This document shows positions 1,980 through 24,983 of a DNA stretch of 50,571 nucleotides, in pieces. Position 1 is the stretch's first letter, and each line of letters opens with the position of its first letter. This DNA is from an uncultured Candidatus Saccharibacteria bacterium (GTDB taxonomy: Bacteria; Patescibacteriota; UBA1384; XYA2-FULL-43-10), in the NCBI GenBank assembly GCA_964486765.1, contig CAZAOA010000004.1, forward strand, positions 1-50,571, in the 5' to 3' direction. Position numbers and translations under genes: made by a program. The notes under the pieces are model-generated. The model did not search any database, was not told the DNA's origin, and worked only from the letters and a program-made list of their open reading frames with translations.

Positions 1980-2037
1980 TCACTGTTTGGCAACCCCAAA
2001 CGTACGTTAACAACTCAACCACAAGGAGACTGCTCAA

Positions 2038-2682
2038 ATGAGCATCGCACTGCCAAGTCGCATACAAGTCCACATGTACATCACATGGACGATAACCGCC
2101 GTAGTCCTCCACTCCATCTGCCTCTGGATCATCGGCCACTGGACACCGCTCATCGGCACTGGCAAGATGCTATGGTTCGATGCCAACAAGATGCTATGGT
2201 TCTTGCCAGTATTGTTCCCTATCTCTCGATGGTGGGACCTGGTGCTCTACCCGGTCATATTGCTTCCGGTATTGGTATTTCACCAAGGTCAGAGAAACTG
2301 GGGCCTGATCATCGGAGGAATCGCTGTAATGATGATCGCCATGGTTCCCGTTCTGAAATACATACTCTGTGGGATTCTGCTTGTGGTTAATCTATTCTCG
2401 ACCATCATATCTCATTGCTCGCATGAAGCGCGTGAAGGTGAAGTACTTGAAGTAACCGCAGTGCTTCTAGTATTTGCCGCGCTAGAGGCCAACGTTGCGT
2501 TCGGCGCTTCAATGACAATCGGACTTGTAGCGGTCCTTGGCGCCGTTTACATCACCGGCCTCCTGCTTCGTTACCTTGTGTTCGCGTTTCAGTGGCTTCT
2601 ATACAGCGCCTTTCCTCTGGTTGCGGCAGCAAGAACCGCCATTGTTGAGTCGGTAAAATGGTGGTTCTTCGATGGCGAATAA
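2038..2682 (+). CDS. Orphan polytopic membrane protein (high-GC island A)
   Basis: 214-aa ORF with strong RBS, several Trp/Leu/Val-rich hydrophobic spans and GC-rich codon choice unlike the flanks. No family recognised. Contains a 24-nt tandem duplication (KMLWFDAN/KMLWFLPV). Confidence 0.55.
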   Translation: MSIALPSRIQVHMYITWTITAVVLHSICLWIIGHWTPLIGTGKMLWFDANKMLWFLPVLFPISRWWDLVLYPVILLPVLVFHQGQRNWGLIIGGIAVMMIAMVPVLKYILCGILLVVNLFSTIISHCSHEAREGEVLEVTAVLLVFAALEANVAFGASMTIGLVAVLGAVYITGLLLRYLVFAFQWLLYSAFPLVAAARTAIVESVKWWFFDGE

Positions 2683-2708
2683 CCTCCCAACCAACCCAAA
2701 CGAGTCCC
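2658..2708 (+). repeat. Direct repeat copy 1 (pairs with 3691-3740)
   Basis: ATGGTGGTTCTTCGATGGCGAATAACCTCCCAACCAACCCAAACGAGTCCC. About 43 of 51 positions match copy 2. Encodes the ...WWFFDGE* end of ORF 2038-2682. Confidence 0.8.
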
Positions 2709-2948
2709 AGTTCCCCGAAGAGCTCGACATCCGCTGTACATTCCTAGAAATAAAGAGGCAGTAATATGGAAGATATGGATCGACAAGCCCAACTTGCAGA
2801 CCGGTTTCGGGGAGAGTTAGTGAACATATATCTTCAGAACTTGCTTCTTACTGAGAAATTGGTAGGGAGCAGAACTGAGGGTAAAACCTCGATCGTTAAA
2901 ACTAATGAGCCCCGACATGAGGCAAAAAGACACAGGAGACTTACCACC

Positions 2949-3476
2949 ATGCGTAACCTGATGATTGCTGTACTGATGCTGTCGGTGTCCGTCGTTGTTG
3001 CTGACGAAGTATCGCTTGGCTACTTTGGTGAGACTGGGTCGTACGATGGCGCATACATGAGCGCGTCGGTAGAGCAGTTCAATGTCTATGTAGAGCACGC
3101 AGGTGAGTGTAATTACACCCTCGCGATGCTCGATGCCGAGGTCGACGAAGGCCTCCGGGTGGGTATGCGTTTCGATTCACCCAGTATTTGGCGGCCGTAC
3201 GTGAAGAAGTCGATAGCGCTGGGTGACGGTTGGGTGGTCGGGCGCTGGTCGGTCGGTGGTTTGGGAGGCGTGAAGCAGCGCTTTGACATCTTCGCAGGCT
3301 ATCCGATCAACGATTGGTTGGCCGTCGAGGGCTGGGAGCGCTACCAGTCGGGATCGGCGCCAGCCCATAGTTGGGGACCGAAGGTATCGTACGGAGACTT
3401 CAGTCTCTGGTACGGCAAGAATTTCGGTGTTGGAGATGATGCTGTTATGGCAAACTACCAGGCATTTGCCTGGTGA
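2949..3476 (+). CDS. Orphan secreted beta-strand-rich protein (high-GC island A)
   Basis: Internal ATG 2949 follows AGGAG and begins a signal-peptide-like MRNLMIAVLMLSVSVVVADE. It has an alternating hydrophobic pattern and a C-terminal ...YQAFAW. The ORF-track start 2766 is probably upstream read-through. Confidence 0.5.
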   Translation: MRNLMIAVLMLSVSVVVADEVSLGYFGETGSYDGAYMSASVEQFNVYVEHAGECNYTLAMLDAEVDEGLRVGMRFDSPSIWRPYVKKSIALGDGWVVGRWSVGGLGGVKQRFDIFAGYPINDWLAVEGWERYQSGSAPAHSWGPKVSYGDFSLWYGKNFGVGDDAVMANYQAFAW

Positions 3477-3690
3477 GAAGGGGGAACTGAATTGGGCGCT
3501 TGGATAAAATGGATACTCTTACAGGGTCCAAGGCTCATTGTGCTGCCTGCCAAGACGGTCTGGATGTGCGAGTAATCCAAGGATAGTGGAATGCCCCTGG
3601 GTCGGATTACAGCGGTGAGGGATTCATCTGTATTATGGGTCTGACGAAGATACCTTCCAACCCCAAAATCACAACCGGAAGCGCCTTTAT

Positions 3691-3740
3691 ATGGTGGTTC
3701 TTCGATGGTGAATGACACCCCACGAACCCAAACGAGTCCC
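3691..3740 (+). repeat. Direct repeat copy 2 (pairs with 2658-2708)
   Basis: ATGGTGGTTCTTCGATGGTGAATGACACCCCACGAACCCAAACGAGTCCC. Closes a 26-codon ORF (3635-3715) that also ends WWFFDGE*. Confidence 0.8.
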
Positions 3741-3755
3741 CCTAAGGGGGACTCG
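3733..3755. terminator. 10-bp GC hairpin, likely bidirectional terminator (island A / Nramp gene)
   Basis: CGAGTCCCCC-TAA-GGGGGACTCG is a perfect 10-bp stem. On the minus strand it is followed by TTTGGGTT, about 25 nt after the Nramp stop. Confidence 0.45.
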
Positions 3756-3779
3756 TAGTCATTTAGATCAAATAAATAT

Positions 3780-7328: not shown

Positions 7329-7493
7329 TATTAAATAGCAACAAGCCACATAATTATTCTATCACATTTCTTAAAATCTGTGTCTCCGCCAACTGGCGGA
7401 CTCTGTGAAAGATCAGCCTGTCCGCAATGTTTAGCTTATGCAGGCGGGTGTTGGAATTACCTTACAATCTTTAAATCTTATCAATAACAATTT

Positions 7494-7524
7494 TAAAAAA
7501 GCCCCCCCCGCAAGCGGAGGGAGG
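7494..7524 (-). terminator. Rho-independent terminator of island B gene
   Basis: Minus strand reads CCCTCCGC-TT-GCGGGGGG followed by CTTTTTT. Confidence 0.6.
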
Positions 7525-7568
7525 TCGGACGAAGTATTAGAATCCAAGACACGATAGGATCCGAGCGA

Positions 7569-8156
7569 CTAGTTGCGACGGAACACCCAGTGGCGTCCGT
7601 ATGTCATGTCGAGAAGGTCACCGCCGTAGCTGCTCAGCCACAGACCTCCAAGGGTAGGGCTACACCTATGATCGACGCCGAAGATTTGGGGGCGGCCATC
7701 GAATCTCGCGAGCGGCTCCATGACGATCAATAGCTTATCATCGGGCGGTTGTTTGAGGTAGTGACGGCGGATCTCTGGACCGTCTGATGCCAGACAGGGC
7801 TCCCAGCCAAGCTCAATTCCGGCTTCGTACGCTTGAGTCCAGGAGCAACCCAGCGACGGCGACGGGGAGCCGAGTTCCTCGTTAGAGGCCATGACAAAGC
7901 CAATGTCCTCCTTCGTCTGAGGGATACTGTCTGCGAAGGTGGGCTGGCTTATCATCTCGCTGGCCCATCTGTCGATATGGCTGATGGGTTTGATCTGACT
8001 CAAGGCTTGGCGAAAATCCGCCTCGGTTTTGAGTGTCCCGACCCGCACTGTCAGGAACGGTGAGCGTTCGATGAGGGCGCTCCGACCTGGCACCACTAGC
8101 ATCAGATATCTCCTTCTGCGTTTTATACGGGTTTCGCTCTCCCGAATTTCACTCAT
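7569..8156 (-). CDS. Orphan 195-aa protein (high-GC island B)
   Basis: Long ORF in a GC-rich block with its own promoter and terminator. ATG at 8156 follows the TTG of the ORF track. No family recognised and no clear SD. Confidence 0.5.
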   Translation of the reverse strand: MSEIRESETRIKRRRRYLMLVVPGRSALIERSPFLTVRVGTLKTEADFRQALSQIKPISHIDRWASEMISQPTFADSIPQTKEDIGFVMASNEELGSPSPSLGCSWTQAYEAGIELGWEPCLASDGPEIRRHYLKQPPDDKLLIVMEPLARFDGRPQIFGVDHRCSPTLGGLWLSSYGGDLLDMTYGRHWVFRRN

Positions 8157-8277
8157 CAAACGAGTGTAACCCGTAGGCTTAGCTATCTATCTAAAGAGAT
8201 CCTTCATTTTTATTCAGGATGACATTCATATCAGATAAACAATTAAGCCAAAAGGTGGTATTTGTAACTACAATAAT

Positions 8278-8317
8278 ATTATAGTGTAAGCATACACTAA
8301 TAATCAATACTTGTCAA
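8278..8317 (-). promoter_or_regulatory. Overlapping sigma70-type promoters for island B gene
   Basis: On minus: TTGATT(8307-8302)-18nt-TATAAT(8283-8278), and TTGACA(8317-8312)-17nt-TATGCT. Implies a 5' UTR of about 115 nt. Confidence 0.45.
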
Positions 8318-8393
8318 GCTTTTTATCCTCAACAATCCAAGCTGTCAACAACAGACATCGTGTTGTCGAAGCAAAATATTGATTTGACTATAC

Positions 8394-10376: not shown

Positions 10377-10410
10377 ATTACTGAAACAGTTTACCAAGAA
10401 AACATACCTT

Positions 10411-10448
10411 AGCCAAACATTGACACAATGGCTCTTTTTTGATAGAGT
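10411..10448 (+). promoter_or_regulatory. Cassette 1 promoter/hairpin module
   Basis: AGCCA-N13-TGGCT hairpin whose loop holds TTGACA (10420-10425), then a 17-nt spacer with T-run and TAGAGT (10443-10448). AAGGGAGG at 10475-10482. Confidence 0.5.
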
Positions 10449-10491
10449 TCTGGTGACAGAATACAGAAACCCACAAGGGAGGATGCTGGAC

Positions 10492-11028
10492 ATGAAAGTC
10501 ATCCGGAAAGTATATCCGTTCGTCCCGCTGGTCGTTGCACTGGCGCTTGTAGCCACTTTCCTCTGCCATCGGTTCAAGACCAATGGCGAACTCGAAGACG
10601 CTCGGATCGCCCGTATGAATGCTGAGCTGTCACGGGCAGAAGAATCATTCACCGTCCCAAAAGGTACGCTTCTGGCATCTACTGACGGCGAGAAGTGTCG
10701 AGTCGAAGTCTGGAGTACAGAAGCTATCCCCAACCCCTACAAGGTTCCGTATGCCGATAGTTACTCGCTCGATGGTGTAAGGGTTGTCATCTGTCCAAAA
10801 CAACCCGATGATCCAATGATCCGACGGAAGATCGAAGATGGCGTCGTTTACGATTACCAGCGATCAGGGGCCATAGAACGGCTCATAGACGATGAGCCCA
10901 TTCTCATTCCCGACATATTCACCCTGACTTCGGGTGACTCAGAAATCCAATGGGCGTTCATGCTCGCCATCCCCGACCAGAGTAAGTTTGAGTGGCGAGA
11001 AGAGCCGGCACGAGTGGCAAAGCTCTGA
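10492..11028 (+). CDS. Orphan N-terminally membrane-anchored protein (island C cassette 1)
   Basis: ATG 10492 lies 9 nt after GGAGG. Begins MKVIRKVYPFVPLVVALALVATFLCHRF followed by a soluble domain. GC-rich codons. No family recognised. Confidence 0.55.
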   Translation: MKVIRKVYPFVPLVVALALVATFLCHRFKTNGELEDARIARMNAELSRAEESFTVPKGTLLASTDGEKCRVEVWSTEAIPNPYKVPYADSYSLDGVRVVICPKQPDDPMIRRKIEDGVVYDYQRSGAIERLIDDEPILIPDIFTLTSGDSEIQWAFMLAIPDQSKFEWREEPARVAKL

Positions 11029-11048
11029 TCGTCACCAACACCGCAAGG

Positions 11049-11069
11049 CCGCCCCATACATTGGGGCGG
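11049..11069 (+). terminator. Cassette 1 terminator hairpin
   Basis: CCGCCCCA-TACAT-TGGGGCGG is an 8-bp GC stem 20 nt after the stop. The U-tract is weak. Confidence 0.45.
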
Positions 11070-11133
11070 TCGAATCATTTCTAAAACATTATTTGACTAT
11101 TTAGACCTAGATATTTTTTCGACAATATTCCAC

Positions 11134-11172
11134 GAGCCAAACATTGACACAATGGCTCTTATTTGATAGTTT
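11134..11172 (+). promoter_or_regulatory. Cassette 2 promoter/hairpin module
   Basis: GAGCCA-N13-TGGCTC hairpin, TTGACA 11144-11149, 17-nt spacer, TAGTTT 11167-11172. GGAGG at 11202-11206. Confidence 0.5.
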
Positions 11173-11212
11173 GAATAGGACGAAAATCTGCGACCACACA
11201 CGGAGGCATTCC

Positions 11213-11743
11213 ATGCATCGCAAAGGGTATACGCTGATTGAACTTCTGGTCGTGATCGTGCTCATCGTTTTATTGATAGCAATCGCTATGCCTTGTTATC
11301 AAAAGATAAGCCAGGTAAGCCGAAAAGCCGAAGCGGTCGACACAATCTTCCCACTTAAGGCCGGTGAGATCGCACATATAGCATCGTTGCTTGATGACGA
11401 AGTCATCGTTGTGTATCGGTATGAGAGTACAATCGAGTCACTCCGTGAATACAACGAACTCGTCGATCAAGGAACTGCAGGCCCTCTAGTGGCGCGTGTC
11501 ATAAGCCAACTTCCGATCGCTGGCTCTCCGCCAAACCTATACGTACTGGGAAGTGATGGACAGTCTCTGACGCTAACGCCAAACCCTCCAACCTCGATTC
11601 ATCTGCCCTGCACTTTCGAAGGGCATGAATTCACGAAAGAGATTGATGTGAAGATGAATCCGAAAGTTACGTACGTCGATCAGTCAAAAGCTCTTGCAAA
11701 GAGCGAGAGCTCCACCCGAACCGACCCTGACGCTACACGGTAG
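11213..11743 (+). CDS. Prepilin-type (class III signal peptide) protein, divergent body, C-terminal TRTDPD tail (cassette 2)
   Basis: MHRKG/YTLIELLVVIVLIVLLIAIAMP is a canonical N-methylation/cleavage motif with Glu+5. ATG 11213 lies 6 nt after GGAGG. The track start 11144 is the TTG of the -35 box. Confidence 0.7.
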   Translation: MHRKGYTLIELLVVIVLIVLLIAIAMPCYQKISQVSRKAEAVDTIFPLKAGEIAHIASLLDDEVIVVYRYESTIESLREYNELVDQGTAGPLVARVISQLPIAGSPPNLYVLGSDGQSLTLTPNPPTSIHLPCTFEGHEFTKEIDVKMNPKVTYVDQSKALAKSESSTRTDPDATR

Positions 11744-11787
11744 TTGTCAGGGGCTGTACAAATATTATTTCATTACATATAACAAAA

Positions 11788-11812
11788 AACCGCCATTATA
11801 TGGTGGTTTTTT
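11788..11812 (+). terminator. Cassette 2 rho-independent terminator
   Basis: AACCGCC-ATTATAT-GGTGGTT followed by TTTT. Confidence 0.65.
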
Positions 11813-11841
11813 GAAGTGTTAACTTTCGAAATGGAATTGAA

Positions 11842-11880
11842 GAGCCAAACACTGACACAATGGCTCTTTTTTGATAGTTT
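11842..11880 (+). promoter_or_regulatory. Cassette 3 promoter/hairpin module
   Basis: GAGCCA-N13-TGGCTC hairpin, CTGACA 11852-11857, 17-nt spacer, TAGTTT 11875-11880. GGAGG at 11909-11913. Confidence 0.45.
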
Positions 11881-11919
11881 GAATGGGACGAAAATCTGCG
11901 ACACACATGGAGGCATGCA

Positions 11920-12492
11920 ATGAGTCGCAAAGGGTTTAAGCTGATTGAAGTTCTGGTTGTGATCGCCGTCATCGCCGTCTTGGCTGCAATCCTTTTTCCT
12001 CAATTCGCAAAGGCAAAACGCAAAGCTGAATTGAAGAATGCCATGAGGAATGCCACAAAGGAGTCAATTCTTCCGCTAGAGCGCGGCGTGGTTGCCGCTT
12101 CGCACTCCTTGATGGATGGTTCCGTCAAGATCGAGTATCGGTATGACCGAACCATCACATCTCTGCAGAATTATGATGATCCTGAAACCGTGGTCATCCA
12201 CGAAACAGCCGTACCACTAGTGGTGTATGTCGACAGTCAGCTTCCGATCATTGAATCACACACGACGCCATCTAACCTTCGTCTGAGAATGGCCGACAAC
12301 CGATTCGTAGACATAGACATTGAGCCACTATCGATATCGGCGATCGATTTCCCATACATCCACAATGGCGAGGAACACACAAACAAGATCCCGGTCGAGG
12401 TTGCCCGAACCGAATACCTTGATCTGTCTGGATTAACAGACACAGAAGTCGATATCGCCCGACGTACCCGAACCGACCCTGACAATTCGTAG
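11920..12492 (+). CDS. Prepilin-type (class III signal peptide) protein, paralog of cassette 2 product (cassette 3)
   Basis: MSRKG/FKLIEVLVVIAVIAVLAAILFPQFAKAKRKA. Shares YRY..TI.SL..Y and SQLPI motifs and the RTRTDPD tail with the cassette 2 product. Confidence 0.7.
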   Translation: MSRKGFKLIEVLVVIAVIAVLAAILFPQFAKAKRKAELKNAMRNATKESILPLERGVVAASHSLMDGSVKIEYRYDRTITSLQNYDDPETVVIHETAVPLVVYVDSQLPIIESHTTPSNLRLRMADNRFVDIDIEPLSISAIDFPYIHNGEEHTNKIPVEVARTEYLDLSGLTDTEVDIARRTRTDPDNS

Positions 12493-12536
12493 TTGTCAGG
12501 GGCTGTACAAACATAATTACATTACATATAACAAAA

Positions 12537-12561
12537 AACCACCAGTATATGGTGGTTTTTT
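12537..12561 (+). terminator. Cassette 3 rho-independent terminator
   Basis: AACCACC-AGTATAT-GGTGGTT followed by TTTT. Confidence 0.65.
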
Positions 12562-12589
12562 GAATGGGCGAAAGATAGAGGTAAGCTTA
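12556..12589 (+). repeat. 34-nt direct repeat copy 1 (TTTTTGAATGGGCGAAAGATAGAGGTAAGCTTA)
   Basis: Exact repeat of 12694-12727 apart from its first base. Immediately followed by the GC hairpin 12589-12635, which is absent from copy 2. Confidence 0.85.
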
Positions 12590-12693
12590 CCTGCCCGCAA
12601 CGCCTCGCAAGCTCGGCTTGCGTGGCGGGCGAGGTCGGGAACAATATTTAAAATACTTGTTCACAATCAAAAAAACACTACTTGTTGTAATGT

Positions 12694-12727
12694 CTTTTTG
12701 AATGGGCGAAAGATAGAGGTAAGCTTA
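12694..12727 (+). repeat. 34-nt direct repeat copy 2
   Basis: CTTTTTGAATGGGCGAAAGATAGAGGTAAGCTTA. Followed by CGGGAACAAGTATTTTAAATATTG, the reverse complement of the palindrome that follows copy 1. Confidence 0.85.
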
Positions 12728-13012
12728 TCGGGAACAAGTATTTTAAATATTGCCCGGTTACATTTCTTTCGCCCGAAAGGAGCCTAGCAGGTTATGTATT
12801 ATCCCTTATGAAACAAATAGTCACACAAAAGAATTTTTCCTGCTTTACTCTCTTTACATTTTTGGCCCTACCCATTCAAAGTACAAAGAATGACTGAATA
12901 ATTTAGTAGGACTGAGCTGGGAGGAAGATGACGATAACAAAGTTTAACATTACGCATCATCTTCCTTATAGGAGGGCGGGAGCATTCCCTCCAAATCCCA
13001 TCTCACTCTTAC

Positions 13013-16757: not shown

Positions 16758-16844
16758 GTAGATAGTTTACTAGATTGTAGTTTTTTAAGTTTCGAATCTT
16801 TATCGTTTGGGTTTGTTTAGTATTTAGATGTTGATCAATTGTTC

Positions 16845-16988
16845 GACACCTGCCCGTCCTGCGCTCGAGTTTGTCTCGAAACCTATCCGCCGTGGCTCGA
16901 CCACGGCGAGACAGGCGGGTTCGCAGACGAATCGTCGCTACGGAGGGCGCGACAGACTATCGATAAAATTAAGGTGTCGCGGAGGGGA
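16845..16988 (+). promoter_or_regulatory. GC-rich conserved 5' leader element, copy P (upstream of pilB)
   Basis: GC-rich block inside an AT-rich leader. It shares GTCTCGAAACCTAT...GGGTTCGCAG.CGAA.CGTCGCT..GG.GGGC.CGACA.ACTAT.GA.AA..TTAAGGTGTCG.GGAGGGG.ATG with 30862-30960 (minus). It carries an extra 8-bp hairpin CGCCGTGG-CTCGA-CCACGGCG at 16888-16908. Confidence 0.5.
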
Positions 16989-19586
16989 ATGAACAGAAAA
17001 GAGCTAGCGAGGGAACTGGCCAAAAAGACCAAACTTTCGGCTAAGCAAGCCGAGAATCTTATAATTGCCTTCGGTGCTGTAGTCACCGATGTTCTAGAAA
17101 AGCAAGAAAAAATCGTTTACTCAAATTTTGGGACATTTTACACTGTTCACTATCCTTCAAAAACAATCTATCACCCAAAACTTGGCAAAAAGAAAACCAT
17201 GATAATGCTTCCGACCAATGCCGCAAAGTGGATGCCCGCAAGTAATATTAAAAAGATGGTAAATGGAGGAGTAGAAGTGGATGAACCAACTAGACACAAA
17301 GCAACAAAATCTCCGATTCAAAAGCCAGATGTTAAAGATGTTCCAGAAAAACCCAAGACCGAAAGCGTAAAGCCGAAAGTTGCAAGTAAACTCGATGAGA
17401 TCGAGGATCTGGAAGAATATCAGAAAGCCAAAAAAGAGATGGCAGATGGGACTCCTTTTGATGTTGGAGATAAGTCAACGTCAAAAAAAGTCAAAGAAGT
17501 AGAAAAAGAGCGAGCAAATATATATGAAGAAACTATGGCGGATGGTTCTAGCGAGCTCTCAACTGTGGACGGCTCAATCAAACTTCATGATGACAAAGAC
17601 GATCATACGATAGATGATGGTCGCAATATGGATAATAGTCATAAGATGGACGATATAGTTGCAAAAAATAAAGAACTTGAAGAAGAAAAAGATAAGAAAC
17701 CAGAGAAAAAAGAAACAAGTCACGATGGAGCATTTAGCAAAATAAAATCAAAGTTCGGGTTTGGCCATAAAGATGATGAAAAAGTGGATGAAGTCAAAAA
17801 AGAAACCAAGGAAGATGAAGAAACGTCTGTAAGTCTTGCAGGATCAGGTATTTTTGGAACTGAGAATATGAAAGATCGCGAAAAAGAAAAAGATATTAAG
17901 ACTACTGGAGCACGAAAGATTGATAAAATAAAAGACGAATTTCACGAAGGCTCAAAAGGCGATGATGATGATTCACTTAGCAAAAGTGCTGAGATACAAA
18001 AACCGAATTTAAGCCTAGTTAGAGAGCCTGTAAATATTGTTTACAAGGACCTTACAAAAGAAGATATCGATAAAGAACTTCTCAAAAAGGTTCCACTTAA
18101 GATTGCCAGAAAATACAAAGCCGTTCCATTGAATGAGAAAGATGGAGTAATCTCCGTTGCTATGGTTGACCCGCAAGATGTCGAGACCAAAGAGATCTTA
18201 AAAAAGAATTTGGGTCAAAATCTTCAAATTGTGCTCTCTACTGAAGCAGATATTAATCATGTTTTGAATCAATACCAAGGCTTGGAAAGTGAAGTTACTA
18301 GCGTTATAGAGGGTGCCGTATCTGCAGGAGAGAAAGATGAAGAAAAGAAAAAGAAAGAAGAGAAAAAGAAAGTTACTGCAGATGAGATCTCCGATGACGC
18401 TCCAGCTGCAAAAATCGTGGATTCATTACTGAAGCGCGCCATTCGTGATAAGGCTTCAGATATTCACATAGAGCCTGCTGAGAAAGAAGTTGAGGTCAGA
18501 TTCAGGATTGATGGAGTACTTCGAAAGAAAGTTTCGCTCCCTAAAGACATTCAGGCTGCAGTTGTTTCTCGATTAAAGATCTTATCAAATATGAAGATTG
18601 ATGAACAGCGTGTGCCTCAAGATGGAAGATTTAACATGATTGTAGATAATAGACAAGTCGACTTTCGTGTTTCGACCATGCCAATCTCTTCTGGTGAAAA
18701 AGTAGTTATGCGTATCTTGGATAAAGAAACTGGAATTTTGACAATAGAACAGTTAGGTATTCAGGGTAGTGGTAAAGTAGTCATCGAAGACAACCTTAAA
18801 AAGAGCCATGGGATGATACTTGTTACCGGTCCTACTGGTTCAGGTAAGTCCACCACTCTTTATGCTATGATCAGCAAGATTTTCAATGTTGGAGTAAATA
18901 TTATTACACTTGAAGATCCGATTGAGTATCAGATCAAAGGAATCAACCAAAGCCAAGTTAATTCAGCTATCGGTTACACATTTGCAAGTGGGCTTAGATC
19001 CATTCTAAGACAAGATCCGGACATTATCATGCTTGGGGAGATTCGTGACAAAGAAACTGCAGAGATGGCCGTTCACGCCGCTCTAACTGGTCATGTACTT
19101 TTGTCTACTCTTCACACAAACACAGCTGCAGGTGCAGCACCTCGAATGATTGATATGGGTGTTGAGCCATTCCTTTTAACTTCTTCCATAAATGTAATTA
19201 TTGCTCAAAGACTTGTAAGAAAGATCTGTAGCGAATGCAAAGAGGAAGTCAAGCTTGCTCCCGAAGAGCTAGAAACAGTCAAAAAAGAGATTGAATTACT
19301 TCCTGAAAAGGAAAAAGCTGAGATTAAAAAGAAAGACATTAAGTTTTTCCATGGAAAAGGCTGCAAGACTTGCGATAATTCTGGAACAAAAGGACGAATT
19401 GGAATCTATGAAGTACTTGATGTAACTGAAGAGATAAAAGCGTTGGTTCAACAGCGTTCTTCAGACGCAGGGATCCATAAGATTGCAATTTCACAAGGGA
19501 TGGTTACCTTATTACAAGATGGAATAATCAAAGCCGTAAATGGTGAAATACCAATGACTGAAGTATGGAGAACAACTAAGGAATAA
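16989..19586 (+). CDS. pilB: HU/IHF-like DNA-binding domain fused through a K/E/D-rich linker to type IV pilus assembly ATPase PilB (GspE family)
   Basis: ATG 16989 follows GGAGGGG. Residues 1-95 (MNRKELARELAKKTKLSAKQAENLIIAFGAVVTDVLEKQEKIVYSNFGTFYTVHYP...) look like HU. Then come a T2SSE_N-like domain, Walker A GPTGSGKSTT, and the tetracysteine CSEC...CKTC. The 50 upstream codons of the track ORF lie in the leader. Confidence 0.85.
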   Translation: MNRKELARELAKKTKLSAKQAENLIIAFGAVVTDVLEKQEKIVYSNFGTFYTVHYPSKTIYHPKLGKKKTMIMLPTNAAKWMPASNIKKMVNGGVEVDEPTRHKATKSPIQKPDVKDVPEKPKTESVKPKVASKLDEIEDLEEYQKAKKEMADGTPFDVGDKSTSKKVKEVEKERANIYEETMADGSSELSTVDGSIKLHDDKDDHTIDDGRNMDNSHKMDDIVAKNKELEEEKDKKPEKKETSHDGAFSKIKSKFGFGHKDDEKVDEVKKETKEDEETSVSLAGSGIFGTENMKDREKEKDIKTTGARKIDKIKDEFHEGSKGDDDDSLSKSAEIQKPNLSLVREPVNIVYKDLTKEDIDKELLKKVPLKIARKYKAVPLNEKDGVISVAMVDPQDVETKEILKKNLGQNLQIVLSTEADINHVLNQYQGLESEVTSVIEGAVSAGEKDEEKKKKEEKKKVTADEISDDAPAAKIVDSLLKRAIRDKASDIHIEPAEKEVEVRFRIDGVLRKKVSLPKDIQAAVVSRLKILSNMKIDEQRVPQDGRFNMIVDNRQVDFRVSTMPISSGEKVVMRILDKETGILTIEQLGIQGSGKVVIEDNLKKSHGMILVTGPTGSGKSTTLYAMISKIFNVGVNIITLEDPIEYQIKGINQSQVNSAIGYTFASGLRSILRQDPDIIMLGEIRDKETAEMAVHAALTGHVLLSTLHTNTAAGAAPRMIDMGVEPFLLTSSINVIIAQRLVRKICSECKEEVKLAPEELETVKKEIELLPEKEKAEIKKKDIKFFHGKGCKTCDNSGTKGRIGIYEVLDVTEEIKALVQQRSSDAGIHKIAISQGMVTLLQDGIIKAVNGEIPMTEVWRTTKE

Positions 19587-19640
19587 TCAAACTTCAACTT
19601 TCAATGTGAAAATGGAAATTGGAAATTGGAAAATAATATT

Positions 19641-20840
19641 ATGCATTTTAAATACACAGCTAGAAATTCTGAAGGAGAGCAGATTAAAGGTGAAATCGAA
19701 GCTGCAGATGAGACTTTGGCGTCTTCTGCGTTGAGAGAAAAAGGCTTATATATAAGCTCCATGAAGAAAGTATCTGAGAGCAAACTACCAGAAATCCCGT
19801 TTCTGAATAAAACCAGCCTTAAAGATAAGATAATTTTCACCCAACAGCTTGGGATAATGATTAAATCGGGCTTAAACGTAGTTGACGCTCTAAAAGCCTT
19901 AAGTACAGAAACTACAAATCAAAATTTCACCGACGAGATTACCGACATTATCTCAGATGTAAAAGGAGGAGCCCCACTTTCTGATGCTTTTGCAAAACAC
20001 CCCAGAACATTTGACCCTGTATATATCAGTACTGTGCGATCTGGTGAGAAATCTGGAAAGTTAGATGAAGTCTTGAAAAGGTTGGCAATTCAACTTGATA
20101 AGGATTATGAATTAAGTTCCAAACTTAGAAGTGCAATGTTTTATCCTGCCTTTGTTTTAACTGCACTTGTAATTGTGATGGTTCTTGTAATGATTGTGAT
20201 TGTGCCACAACTTACAGCAATATTTGAAGATGTTGGTGTCCCTCTGCCTATATTGACCAGAATAGTGATCACATTAAGCAAGTTTATGCAAAGCTATATC
20301 CTCTACATTGTTATCGCTCTAATCGGCATATACGCTTTAAGTGTGTATTATGGACGAACCACTTCAGGAAGACATCTTTATGATACTCTCAAGCTTAAGG
20401 TTCCAGTTTTTGGAAAGCTTTTAAAAAAATCCTATATGGCCAAATTCACCCGAACTTTTGCCGGGCTTTCAGCAGCAGGCCTTCCCCTACTAGATATCTT
20501 TAAAGCCGCGAAAGAGGTTATAAACAACTCTGTTTACCAAGAAGAAATTGCTAAAATGGAGAAAAAAATTGAAGTGGGGGAATCCATCTCTAAAGTAATC
20601 AAAGACTGTCCCCTATTTCCTGGAATGGTTGGGCAACTGGCTTCAGTCGGTGAGAAATCTGGAAGCATTGATTTGGTTTTTGACAGCATGGCAAACTTCT
20701 TTGACAAAGAAGTGGACAATATTACTTCCAATCTCTCAGTTCTTCTTGAACCGATTCTTATGGTAATTATGGGAATTGGAGTAGGACTTCTGATTGTTTC
20801 TGTTCTACAACCGATATATGGCTTGGTCAATGCATTGTAG
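19641..20840 (+). CDS. pilC: Type IV pilus platform protein PilC (GspF family)
   Basis: MHFKYTARNSEGEQIKGEIEA start typical of PilC, two GspF repeats and three hydrophobic spans. The track start 19626 is a TTG. Confidence 0.9.
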   Translation: MHFKYTARNSEGEQIKGEIEAADETLASSALREKGLYISSMKKVSESKLPEIPFLNKTSLKDKIIFTQQLGIMIKSGLNVVDALKALSTETTNQNFTDEITDIISDVKGGAPLSDAFAKHPRTFDPVYISTVRSGEKSGKLDEVLKRLAIQLDKDYELSSKLRSAMFYPAFVLTALVIVMVLVMIVIVPQLTAIFEDVGVPLPILTRIVITLSKFMQSYILYIVIALIGIYALSVYYGRTTSGRHLYDTLKLKVPVFGKLLKKSYMAKFTRTFAGLSAAGLPLLDIFKAAKEVINNSVYQEEIAKMEKKIEVGESISKVIKDCPLFPGMVGQLASVGEKSGSIDLVFDSMANFFDKEVDNITSNLSVLLEPILMVIMGIGVGLLIVSVLQPIYGLVNAL

Positions 20841-20988
20841 AAAAAAGTTAGTAGTTTCGTGGTAATACAATCAGTTTCGTCGATAGTCATTCATTAAACG
20901 ACTATAATCCATTGCAAATATTTCAATTTGATATTAGAATATAATTAGAATATAATTTCGGTATTTTTGCACGTTGTTAAGGAGGGTT

Positions 20989-21984
20989 TTGGGGATTTTT
21001 TCATCAAATTCAGCAAATGTTTTCGGGCTTGATATAGGCTTCGAGACTTTGAAGTTGTGTGAAACTCGAAGATCTGGTAACTCTGTTAAGATTGTAGGTC
21101 TCTCTGAACACCACATTACCGAAAGAATTTTAGATAAAGACACCATAAAAAATAAGGCTAAAGTCGCCAATATGATCAAGGAATCAATGCGTACAGCGAA
21201 ACCTCATTCGATTAGGGCCAACAAGATTGTGACAGCTCTACCCGAAACATTTGTATTTTCTAAAACCATACAGGTACCCAAGATGGGACCAAAAGAACTT
21301 ACAGTTGCTATCCCCAACGAAGCAGCGCAGTACCTTCCAATGCCGATTGTTGAAGTCTACATAGACTACCAAGTCTTGGTAACTCACCCCGAAGAGAACC
21401 GAATGGACATTCTTGTCGCAGCAGCCCCTAAAAGGCTTGTTGACGATTATGTTGAAATGGCCAAGATGGCGAAGATGGAACTTGCTGCACTAGAAACCAA
21501 ACCTGTAGCAGTTGGACGGGCTCTGATTCCTGAAAAATCCAACGAAGGAATCGCTATCTTACATATAGGGACAGAGATTTCTCGAATATCGATATGGGAC
21601 AAAGGAGATATCCGCCTTATCACTACCGTATCAACCGGAAAAAACAAACTTCTGGAAAGTCTTGGTATGGTCAATAAAAGTACGGAAGAAATTACAAAGA
21701 TCAGCCTTGATGAGGAGAAAAAGCTAAACTTAATGCTACCACTAAATTCTATAATTGATGAAGTCGCAGAAGCAATCAGGTATCACCAAAATCGTGGTTA
21801 TAAACCCTCCCCCATCAAACACATTGAGCTTTGTGGAACCGGCGCGCTCATATCGGGAATAGATAAAATAATTGAATCCGAGATAAAGATAAAGACCGAA
21901 GTTTCAAGTTCACAGTTCAATTTAAAAGATAGCCTTCATCCACAGTATCTGACAGCATTTGGATTATCGTTAAGGGAGATATAA
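20989..21984 (+). CDS. pilM: Type IV pilus assembly protein PilM (actin-like ATPase fold)
   Basis: VFGLDIGFETLKL and LCGTGALISG motifs. AGGAGG at 20980-20985 lies inside the track ORF (TTG 20974), so TTG 20989 is the proposed start, which remains uncertain. Confidence 0.8.
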   Translation: MGIFSSNSANVFGLDIGFETLKLCETRRSGNSVKIVGLSEHHITERILDKDTIKNKAKVANMIKESMRTAKPHSIRANKIVTALPETFVFSKTIQVPKMGPKELTVAIPNEAAQYLPMPIVEVYIDYQVLVTHPEENRMDILVAAAPKRLVDDYVEMAKMAKMELAALETKPVAVGRALIPEKSNEGIAILHIGTEISRISIWDKGDIRLITTVSTGKNKLLESLGMVNKSTEEITKISLDEEKKLNLMLPLNSIIDEVAEAIRYHQNRGYKPSPIKHIELCGTGALISGIDKIIESEIKIKTEVSSSQFNLKDSLHPQYLTAFGLSLREI

Positions 21985-22523
21985 TGTCGATTACCACTAT
22001 TAACCTAATTCCTCCCCGAATCAAAAAAGAACAGAGATTGAGACAAATCTCGAAAGTAGTTTTTTCGTTCTTTTTCGCATTACTTCTTATGTCCATTCTC
22101 GTATATGGAGCAATTTTCATGGCAAATTATTATACTCAAGAAGAGCTTACTTCTGCACAAAGCGAATTAGCTGAATACGAGGTTAAAATTAAAAAACTAG
22201 AACCGTTAGAAAAAGATGTAACACTTATTAACTCACGATTAAATAAGATCTCGGAGCTTCGAAAAAATAGCATGCTTTGGAGCGAATTTTTGGAGATCTT
22301 CAATAACTCAACTCCCACTGAACTGCATATTGATTCATTGTCAGTTGATTACAAAGCGAAGACTATTGTCATGGCTGGATCAGCAGAGACTAGAAGGGAG
22401 ATCGTCAAACTCGAGACAAAGCTAAACACAATGGAATCTTTAACCGAAGTAGGATTTAGCTCATCAACCTACGACGAAACTGATTACAACTATAACTTCT
22501 CGATGACAGGAGTATTCAAATGA
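21984..22523 (+). CDS. pilN: Type IV pilus assembly protein PilN
   Basis: INLIPPRIKKEQRLRQ motif, single TM, coiled coil. ATG overlaps the pilM stop. Confidence 0.8.
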   Translation: MSITTINLIPPRIKKEQRLRQISKVVFSFFFALLLMSILVYGAIFMANYYTQEELTSAQSELAEYEVKIKKLEPLEKDVTLINSRLNKISELRKNSMLWSEFLEIFNNSTPTELHIDSLSVDYKAKTIVMAGSAETRREIVKLETKLNTMESLTEVGFSSSTYDETDYNYNFSMTGVFK

Positions 22524-23960: not shown

Positions 23961-24983
23961 TCAAAAAACTGGCTGTGGAACAATTGTCGGGTTAGTGAGA
24001 AAAAATGAGCTTGACCCGCTAGGGGCATTTCCATACTGATAAATCACAAAGTCATATATGTCATACAAAGTTCCGGATTGTCTATCTATATTTGCAATCA
24101 ATGTTCTAGTAACACCACCGAAATGTCCGACTGAGTGAATAGTAGTGTAGGGTGAAGCTATCTGGACATCACTGATCGTTGCAAACATCCCAATTTTCGC
24201 CCCACAACCGATCGGCTTTAAATACAATTCTGTTTGACCACTAAATGGTGCAGCAGTGGAGATACTGCGAATCTCGCCAAGTAGGTTATTTATTCTGTAA
24301 GTTTTAGGGTTATCATTTCTGTTGGATTCAAAAAGCTTCACGTACCCTTCCAAATTAAGGGTACTTTTGTCTGAAGGCCATAAAACAGCCTTAATCTCTT
24401 TCAGCTCACCCATAACAGTAGAAGTAACCTTAGACTCAAAATACAACTTGTCACTGCATTGCGTTTTGTCGGCCTGAACATAGAGCTTGATATCGCTATT
24501 ATTTGCAGCAACAATATTTGTAACATCAATCTTAATCGCTTCATCTTGCTCTAGCCAATAAATCTTATCATAGTCACTGTTCGCAAGCTCTGGTAATGAT
24601 AGCGCACCATCATTGTTGATGTCATCTCCATAAACATCTGCCAAGTAGTTCATGTTCAAATCGTAGTACTTTGTATCCAACTTAGAGGTTGAGATAACTA
24701 CATCACGATTCAACATATCTACACTATTTGCATCTGAAACATTGCTTCTCATCATCTTGTCCTCGTCATATGGATTTGGCAGCTGTGAATTCTTATCATA
24801 CCTGTATCGAAGCATCCCCTCCTCAATTCCAGATTCAGCCGCATAGTAGGCAATAACTGAGTTTTCATACAATGATGCAATGTTCTGATTTAAAAAGAAC
24901 AACCTACCAATTCCAAAAACGATACCACCAACGGTCGCCATTATCAAAAGCGCAATTATAAGAGCTGACCCTCTCTTCTTCAT
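23961..24983 (-). CDS. PilX-like minor pilin / pilus-associated protein
   Basis: MKKRGSALIIALLIMATVGGIVF resembles a PilX_N-type N-terminus. Contains a DINNDGALSLPEL Ca-binding-like DxNxDG loop. Confidence 0.5.
   Translation of the reverse strand: MKKRGSALIIALLIMATVGGIVFGIGRLFFLNQNIASLYENSVIAYYAAESGIEEGMLRYRYDKNSQLPNPYDEDKMMRSNVSDANSVDMLNRDVVISTSKLDTKYYDLNMNYLADVYGDDINNDGALSLPELANSDYDKIYWLEQDEAIKIDVTNIVAANNSDIKLYVQADKTQCSDKLYFESKVTSTVMGELKEIKAVLWPSDKSTLNLEGYVKLFESNRNDNPKTYRINNLLGEIRSISTAAPFSGQTELYLKPIGCGAKIGMFATISDVQIASPYTTIHSVGHFGGVTRTLIANIDRQSGTLYDIYDFVIYQYGNAPSGSSSFFLTNPTIVPQPVF

Follow-up and report, generated by a model that had tools for sequence, protein, structure and literature searches.

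Variable surface-protein families with conserved flanks are known from Neisseria, where the pilE/pilS genes are accompanied by a 3' Sma/Cla repeat, and from Mycoplasma, where they form the vsp, vlp and vsa families. The diversifying type IV pilins of Patescibacteria and Saccharibacteria combine a conserved N-terminal class III signal peptide and helix with very divergent C-terminal domains (PMC11623550). Here we describe a hairpin at positions 2634-2672 of a 50,571-nucleotide (nt) stretch of DNA from an uncultured Candidatus Saccharibacteria bacterium, referred to below as the window, and its counterparts in two groups of accessory genes, islands A and C. The window comes from a marine metagenome, in which it lies on a 694-kb scaffold (ENA ERZ23486238, SAMN10404973). 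Island A (about 1990-3756) holds gene A1 and gene 2, and island C is a row of three tandem units, C1 to C3, each opened by a near-identical 61-nt promoter module. C2 and C3 encode pilin-like proteins that resemble the described pilins in their N-terminus, their divergent C-terminus and the nearby cluster of type IV pilus machinery. On balance, we read the hairpin as an intrinsic terminator and recombination arm in island C and as a translated relic of the same module in island A. Shared descent of the 3' module in the two islands, taken by itself, is probable.

The 3' hairpin of islands A and C

The terminators of C2 and C3 have loops of 3-5 nt and an uninterrupted T6 and lie ~40 nt 3' of the stop codon. 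Elements with related arms lie in island A, and one decayed copy lies beyond C3:

11783-11813, C2 terminator, A6-CCGCCA-TTATA-TGGTGG-T6-GA, -18.6 kcal/mol, z -6.3
12532-12562, C3 terminator, A6-CCACCA-GTATA-TGGTGG-T6-GA, -18.4 kcal/mol, z -5.4
2631-2669, + strand, A1 hairpin copy, AAGAACCGCCATT, 13-nt loop, AATGGTGGTTCTT
3676-3705, + strand, A2 hairpin copy, CGGAAGCGCCTTTATATGGTGGTTCTTCGA, degenerate stem, loop length as in C2
12666-12709, decayed copy of the terminator module, 23.6 bits and E 0.002 with covariance model R1

Expected counts were obtained from shuffles of the window and were zero for each fixed-pattern search. In the window, CGCCATTATATGGTGGTTTTTTGA with up to three mismatches matches only at 3682-3705, 11791-11814 and 12540-12563; the right arm with its tail, ATGGTGGTTYTTYGA, matches only at 2658, 3691, 11800 and 12549; and the gapped pattern AACCRCCA-N3-19-TGGTGGTTYTTYGA matches only at 2634-2672, 11788-11814 and 12537-12563. 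The preliminary description had reported that the terminator stem of C2 and C3 recurs in island A, which these searches bear out with the coordinates moved by one. Its A2 site, placed at 3683-3706 with three mismatches over 26 nt, does have three mismatches but spans 24 nt at 3682-3705. Smith-Waterman alignment of A2 with C2 sets AAGCGCCTTTATATGGTGGTTCTTCGA against AACCGCCATTATATGGTGGTTTTTTGA at 23/27 identity, which none of the shuffles equalled (0/2000), and the 3' similarity is thus above shuffled sequence. The A1 left arm, AAGAACCGCCATT, agrees with AAAAACCGCCATT at 12/13 positions, a score reached by 3/2000 shuffles. The match between the islands continues for some bases beyond the hairpin (GA-TGG-CGAA versus GAATGGGCGAA), and all three versions of the hairpin can be aligned position by position, with the arm sequence kept beyond pairing alone.

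The T-run is interrupted in both island A copies (TTCTTC; TTCTTCGA at 2658-2672 and 3691-3705), so that neither has a continuous U-tract. In A1 it has become in-frame codons, as first described: TGG TGG TTC TTC at 2659-2670 reads WWFF in the open reading frame (ORF) 2038-2682. The last 16 codons of A1 are encoded by the hairpin module (..ARTAIVESVKWWFFDGE, then the stop), the right arm ends four codons 5' of the stop, inside the coding sequence, and the loop is 12 nt longer in the alignment than in the other copies, which amounts to four codons in frame. Both A copies have G instead of A as the left-arm partner of the first C, and this replacement of A-U by G-C therefore keeps the stem pair. 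The A1 hairpin has a 13-bp stem (-21 kcal/mol, z -2.8; 4/200 shuffles are as stable), and the A2 hairpin (-11.7 kcal/mol, z -1.4) lies 200 nt 3' of the gene 2 stop.

A covariance model, R1, was built from seven hairpin copies. Its matches in the window are the four known copies, at 49-65 bits, and the decayed one and no others; flanking and related loci totalling 186 kb gave none. The motif scans covered ~58 kb of the 694-kb scaffold (~8%); within this sequence the motif is absent from other native terminators and, as far as checked, is not a general terminator of the genome. When the element was considered as a repetitive extragenic palindrome (REP), a bacterial interspersed mosaic element or a miniature inverted-repeat transposable element, the count was four copies and one decayed copy, all inside the islands.

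Island A has the following further features:

1951-1979, + strand, island A promoter, TTGACT-17-GATAAT with TG, strong in a consensus scan
1923-1894, - strand, promoter of the divergent TrmB-family gene, from the consensus scan
2038-2682, + strand, gene A1, 214-amino-acid (aa) multi-pass membrane protein, orphan
2658-2708, + strand, direct repeat copy 1 (A-type 3' module), right arm, DGE-stop, then CCCAACCAACCCAAACGAGTCCC
2949-3476, + strand, gene 2, 175-aa secreted all-beta protein with a signal peptide
3691-3740, + strand, direct repeat copy 2 (A-type 3' module), WWFFDGE-stop frame kept, TGA for TAA
3732-3756, + strand, GC hairpin CGAGTCCCCC-TAA-GGGGGACTCG, -22 kcal/mol, z -4.1

The hairpin core occurs twice in island A because gene 2 is bracketed by two copies of the 3' end of A1. 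This 51-nt duplication comprises the right arm, the last A1 codons, the stop and 26 nt beyond (A1 versus A2, score 70, 0/3000 shuffles). The consensus scan found no promoter between A1 and gene 2, which is probably co-transcribed with A1, and the GC hairpin at 3732-3756 is the probable real operon terminator and right edge of the island. A1, with a third-position GC content (GC3) of 0.60 and the Shine-Dalgarno (SD) site AAGGAG, has no homologue among the 5.8 billion and 1.84 billion proteins of two collections, one of which was searched exhaustively. The only homologue of gene 2 is P0007, which stands alone beside a TrmB-family gene in L147, a distant Patescibacteria contig whose TrmB-family protein is 35% identical to that of the window. 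The first 59 nt of gene 2 from the ATG (2949-3007) are 90% identical to L147 1274-1332, and the rest is ~35% identical in amino acids, which appears to repeat the pattern of a conserved 5' end and a divergent body.

Three smaller observations concern the same island. Within A1, KMLWF is encoded twice by a 15-nt exact direct repeat, AAGATGCTATGGTTC, whose copies at 2164-2178 and 2188-2202 lie at a distance of 24 nt. The motif AACCC(C)AAACG lies 3' of both A-type modules (2693-2702 and 3725-3734), with a variant at 1993-2002 in the A1 5' untranslated region, and may be part of the cassette junction, with weak statistical support. Contig L028 ends at window position 2075, 38 nt into A1, which hints that variants of island A exist.

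Islands A and C had been called compositionally foreign, and the six genes of islands A, B and C indeed have GC3 values of 0.51-0.69, versus 0.23-0.41 for native genes. Furthermore, a GGAG-type SD site precedes 6/6 island genes versus 4/39 native genes (P = 2.6e-5). The ribosome-binding contexts of islands A and C had also been thought alike, but ACCACAAGGAGA (actually at 2018-2029) and CCCACAAGGGAGGA (10470-10483) give a score that 331/2000 shuffles match. This 5' resemblance is essentially a shared SD site, and its real content is that such a site stands before all island genes and is rare in native genes. Several native genes carry a TATAAT box directly 5' of the ATG, for example those starting at 24983 (-), 25112, 32814 (-) and 48231 (-), which suggests leaderless mRNAs, and many native genes look leaderless. 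The gene of island B, with the highest GC3, is flanked by signals of its own, and the Logan contig L002 ends at 7445, at the edge of this island:

7500-8320, - strand, island B ORF, orphan of 177-196 aa, GC3 0.69, SD AAGGAG
8317-8289, - strand, island B promoter
7523-7502, - strand, island B terminator, unrelated to the A/C hairpin

Island C as a recombining cassette array

Island C is made up of the following parts:

10410-10470, + strand, C1 promoter module, inverted repeat GCCA..TGGC with -35 TTGACA in the loop, T6 spacer, -10 TAGAGT
10492-11028, + strand, C1 ORF, 178 aa with an N-terminal membrane anchor, orphan
11047-11071, C1 terminator, its own and different
11134-11194, + strand, C2 promoter module
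11213-11743, + strand, C2 ORF, 176-aa type IV pilin-like protein
11714-11815, + strand, C2 3' module, codons TRTDPD, stop-codon hairpin CCCTGAC..GTCAGGG, AT-rich spacer, terminator
11842-11902, + strand, C3 promoter module
11920-12492, + strand, C3 ORF, 190-aa type IV pilin-like protein, 41% aa identical to C2
12466-12564, + strand, C3 3' module of the ~100-nt type, ends in the terminator
12590-12727, + strand, strain-polymorphic 105-nt segment and second copy of a 33-nt repeat, absent from L003, L024, L134 and L135

Every promoter module places the -35 TTGACA in the loop of a short inverted repeat, followed by a T6 spacer and a -10 TAGnnT (TTGACA-17-TAGnnT), and the T6 is of constant length across six copies. 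Downstream of the C2 and C3 terminators comes the next promoter module. The modules are 95% (promoter) and 93% (3' module) identical, versus 41% aa identity for the C2 and C3 proteins. Both proteins score above the cut-offs of TIGR02532 (C2 26.7 and C3 25.6 bits; cut-off 16.3) and PF07963 (28.3 and 22 bits; cut-off 21.2), and both carry a class III signal peptide, G↓F/YxLIE, with a hydrophobic helix. The AlphaFold2 model of the pilin shows a long N-terminal helix and then strands but is unreliable, with a mean predicted local distance difference test score (pLDDT) of 41.5. Both AlphaFold2 models that were made are poor (pLDDT 31 and 41.5) and unusable for fold search.

The inverted repeat over the -35 has the form GAGCCA-N13-TGGCTC and is present at 10412-10442, 11136-11166 and 11844-11874, and at 300-330 and 1002-1032 of L134. 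One allele is compensatory (GAGCTA/TAGCTC) and another is register-shifted. As an RNA terminator this hairpin was rejected, since it folds weakly (-4 to -8 kcal/mol) and shows one compensatory change only. A DNA-level repeat over the -35, perhaps an operator, is the likelier reading.

Four other versions of the island C locus were recovered, L024, L134, L135 and L003, and the cassette number per strain is two or three. L024, from a sister sample, has C1 and a single mosaic allele that is 45-90% identical to C2 up to ~11497 and 100% identical thereafter; L134 (Ga0114923) has two cassettes, and L135 has yet another 5' end. The mosaic alleles and the varying cassette number therefore point to homologous recombination and not to an integron-like process. 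The sole mapped breakpoint (~11497) falls within coding sequence. The island C ORFs diverge fast, with ratios of nonsynonymous to synonymous substitution rates (dN/dS) of 0.5-0.8; between the window and L134, C1 has dS 0.76, dN 0.40 and dN/dS 0.53, and DnaB has dS 0.215, dN 0.002 and dN/dS 0.01. Across five alleles the terminator keeps its stem, including a G-U to A-U change that preserves pairing, and its loops differ (TTATA, GTATA, TATAA, TAATC). Island C is thus a recombining, fast-evolving cassette array. Its conserved cassette ends would be expression signals and, as the mosaic pattern suggests, homology arms.

An exact 33-nt direct repeat (12557-12589 and 12695-12727), the first copy of which begins in the C3 T-run, brackets the strain-polymorphic 105-nt segment downstream of C3. 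The segment contains a GC hairpin of -33 kcal/mol and, at 12642-12667, an inverted copy of its right flank (12727-12752), and the decayed terminator-module copy falls inside 12590-12727. This region is probably the stub of a fourth cassette, or it may be a small insertion. Short-read contigs from sibling samples break near module edges, L005 (window 11532-12506) and L004 (ending at 12586) among them, as expected if several strains with different cassette bodies coexist.

Identical stretches of the window are present in independent Logan assemblies of SRR8482191-98, and the arrangement is therefore no assembly chimera. The nearest species representatives are Patescibacteria/Berkelbacteria-like metagenome-assembled genomes, in which UvrD is only 50-56% identical. 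The order DnaX-DnaB-[gap]-UvrD-G5-KsgA-NRAMP(-RsmI) is kept in relatives; islands A and B are missing from the syntenic relatives, and in each of these the DnaB-UvrD gap, the site of island C, is occupied by a different set of lineage-specific genes. A type IV pilus cluster (PilB/PilC/PilM/PilN, 16839-22523) begins 4 kb to the right of island C. Its PilB (T2SSE ATPase) ORF at 16839-19586 has an N-terminal HU-like Bac_DNA_binding domain (residues 51-142). The domain reflects an unusual fusion or else an upstream hup gene that the ORF call joined to it. An Rfam scan of the window returned five tRNAs and no other RNA family.

Probable descent of the island A copies and its alternatives

We propose that the element at 2634-2672 is a member of a locus-restricted family of A-tract / ACCRCCA-loop-TGGTGGT / T-tract hairpins, which would be intrinsic-terminator modules closing accessory surface-protein gene cassettes. 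In island C the modules would start and stop transcription of each cassette and would also serve as homology arms for RecA-type recombination, by unequal crossing-over and by allele replacement after DNA uptake. Such exchange would shuffle surface-protein alleles beside the type IV pilus machinery. The island A copies would descend from the same terminator module as those of island C, a module-ended cassette having gained a downstream gene or fused with a second cassette through recombination at the module. The A1 copy would afterwards have lost its U-run and been absorbed into the A1 reading frame, giving the WWFFDGE C-terminus. It has presumably also lost terminator activity, because promoterless gene 2 needs read-through.

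Several points weigh against this explanation. We infer termination, read-through and recombination alike from the sequence, and the specificity of the motif rests on the ~8% of the scaffold scanned. At whole-island scale (1.9 kb versus 2.9 kb), the best local score is 34, equalled by 1/200 dinucleotide shuffles (P ~0.005), and BLAST of island A against island C gives E = 0.018; the match at this scale is significant but modest. BLAST finds no alignment between islands A and C beyond the 3' module, cassette C1 and island B carry unrelated terminators, and the 5' match is not significant (331/2000, above). The end hairpin of island A likewise shows no significant similarity to the C1 terminator (397/2000 shuffles). 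The single family of cassettes that had been proposed for both islands thus stands as a family in island C and a probably shared 3' module, but not in the 5' modules, the other terminators or the remainder of the islands. Loops vary even among true alleles, and the identity of the A2 and C2 loops could therefore be luck. A1 is an orphan, WWFFDGE may be an ancestral coding feature of it, and three look-ups for strain variants of island A returned only the same arrangement.

The alternative that survives best, though an unlikely one, is convergence or chance, by which island A would be ordinary coding sequence (..WWFFDGE) resembling a very common terminator, with no shared ancestry. Taken alone, the hairpin is of an ordinary terminator type, and at least 116 unrelated metagenome contigs (L134 and L135 set aside) use the same arms as plain terminators, in the form AAAAACCACCA...TGGTGGTTTTTTGA; a few of the contigs encode WWFFD in GC-rich genes, and one example of such a terminator is AACCGCCATTAATTGGTGGTTTTTTGA in L047. 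The stem being so common a design, arm identity alone is weak evidence of kinship, and this too counts against our explanation. Three unrelated GC-rich genomes (L041, L043 and L132) encode WWFFD by the same DNA with AACCRCCA upstream, and both the island-scale P value and the dissimilarity of the islands outside the 3' module accord with convergence. A 1002-aa protein with an internal WWFFDD in L041 and L123, which come from the same projects as true relatives, was rejected as chance.

However, the expected count in the 50-kb window is essentially zero, and the whole of IMG/VR gave four matches to the arm pattern, all from one unrelated phage family and adjoining a tRNA. The match lies at the cassette 3' end in both islands and extends beyond the hairpin, and A1 matches the left arm independently, with a compensatory G-C pair. 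The A copies have no T-run, so that termination is not under selection in island A and does not explain a convergent likeness. Common descent is the better reading because of this 3'-end position, the extension past the hairpin, the matching A1 left arm and the missing T-run. The promoter module, the A-type module and the gene 2 signal-peptide segment are all absent from IMG/VR, and a phage or plasmid origin was rejected, with island C unmatched in phages and island A unmatched in plasmids.

A broader proposal, which we regard as speculative and rather improbable, is that Patescibacteria have a recombinase-independent expression-and-exchange platform. AT-rich native-style promoter and terminator modules and the first 10-30 codons would be its portable homology arms, capturing, swapping and expressing GC-rich foreign ORFs of pilin and other surface-protein genes at several intergenic sites, and the A/C hairpin would be its trace.

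We give little credence to the hairpin as a recombination site, that is, an attC-, dif- or REP-like imperfect palindrome of a non-integron cassette platform whose recombinase or transposase, encoded elsewhere, would insert and excise the cassettes. The hairpins do stand exactly at cassette 3' boundaries, gene 2 lies between two copies, the exact 33-nt repeat from the C3 T-run brackets a strain-polymorphic segment, the arms are conserved beyond mere pairing and the cassette number differs among strains. However, Pfam scans of all major ORFs found no integrase, Xer-type recombinase, transposase or REP-associated tyrosine transposase in the window, neither arm (AACCRCCA / TGGTGGTT) contains the GTTRRRY core, and each cassette has its own promoter. 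The loops, where the crossover would take place, are free to vary, the mapped breakpoint is in coding sequence, and mosaic alleles are the signature of homologous recombination.

A selected functional RNA in A1, an attenuator or 3'-end stabiliser setting the A1:gene 2 ratio with no relic involved, is likewise very unlikely: the stable 13-bp stem, the G-C change that keeps the stem in both copies and the site between two probably co-transcribed genes speak for it, but the change is a single compensatory event common to the two, the folding of A2 is weak (z -1.4), and no homologues were found for covariation.

Comparison with known systems

Patescibacteria live attached to host cells and rely on pili and surface proteins for host recognition. 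With a strain-variable, mosaic pilin-like array at a distance of 4 kb from the pilus machinery, these uncultivated bacteria would have a concrete means of changing their surface rapidly. The array combines conserved promoter and terminator frames with foreign ORFs and a ribosome-binding site that is mostly missing in native genes. The hairpin common to two islands is a small clue that the cassettes may have a common origin. Pfam, NCBIfam and PHROGs searches of the island proteins recognised only the pilin N-terminus, and a sequence search of the PDB was empty. A defence system was rejected: PADLOC gave no match for the six island proteins, and only the adjacent TrmB-family gene was weakly matched. 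Our literature search did not find a description of such a cassette arrangement.

The resemblance of island C to integron cassettes is limited to tandem single-gene units that each end in an imperfect palindrome. An integron with attC sites was rejected: IntI, attI, Pc and R/L core sites are all missing, each cassette has a promoter of its own, and the recombination seen is homologous. There is also a likeness to bidirectional A-tract/hairpin/U-tract intrinsic terminators. C2 and C3 share with them a GC-rich stem of up to 13 pairs including the A/T tracts, a 3-5-nt loop and T6, as well as the position ~40 nt after the stop, conserved stems and free loops. They differ in being set in a ~100-nt module whose conservation far exceeds that of the preceding genes, and the island A copies differ in having no U-run, one of them lying in a reading frame with a 13-nt loop.

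A further likeness is to the variable surface-protein families of Neisseria and Mycoplasma. Island C shares with them tandem pilin-like or secreted paralogues with conserved 5' segments (promoter, 5' untranslated region and signal-peptide codons) and 3' segments, a fast-evolving core, mosaic alleles, copy-number change and a setting in a small-genome, host-dependent bacterium. Unlike the Neisseria pilin system, every copy has its own promoter and terminator, and there are no silent donors. Unlike the Mycoplasma families, it has no invertase in the window, and the promoter T6 shows no length variation among six copies. From both it differs in that the ORFs are foreign (GC3 0.5-0.7) and the modules AT-rich. 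The work on the diversifying pilins of Patescibacteria and Saccharibacteria describes no promoter and terminator modules framing the genes, no gain or loss of cassettes between strains and no foreign composition (PMC11623550). Overall, we regard the locus, in a lineage from which it has not been described, as a modestly novel variant of the variable surface-protein families.

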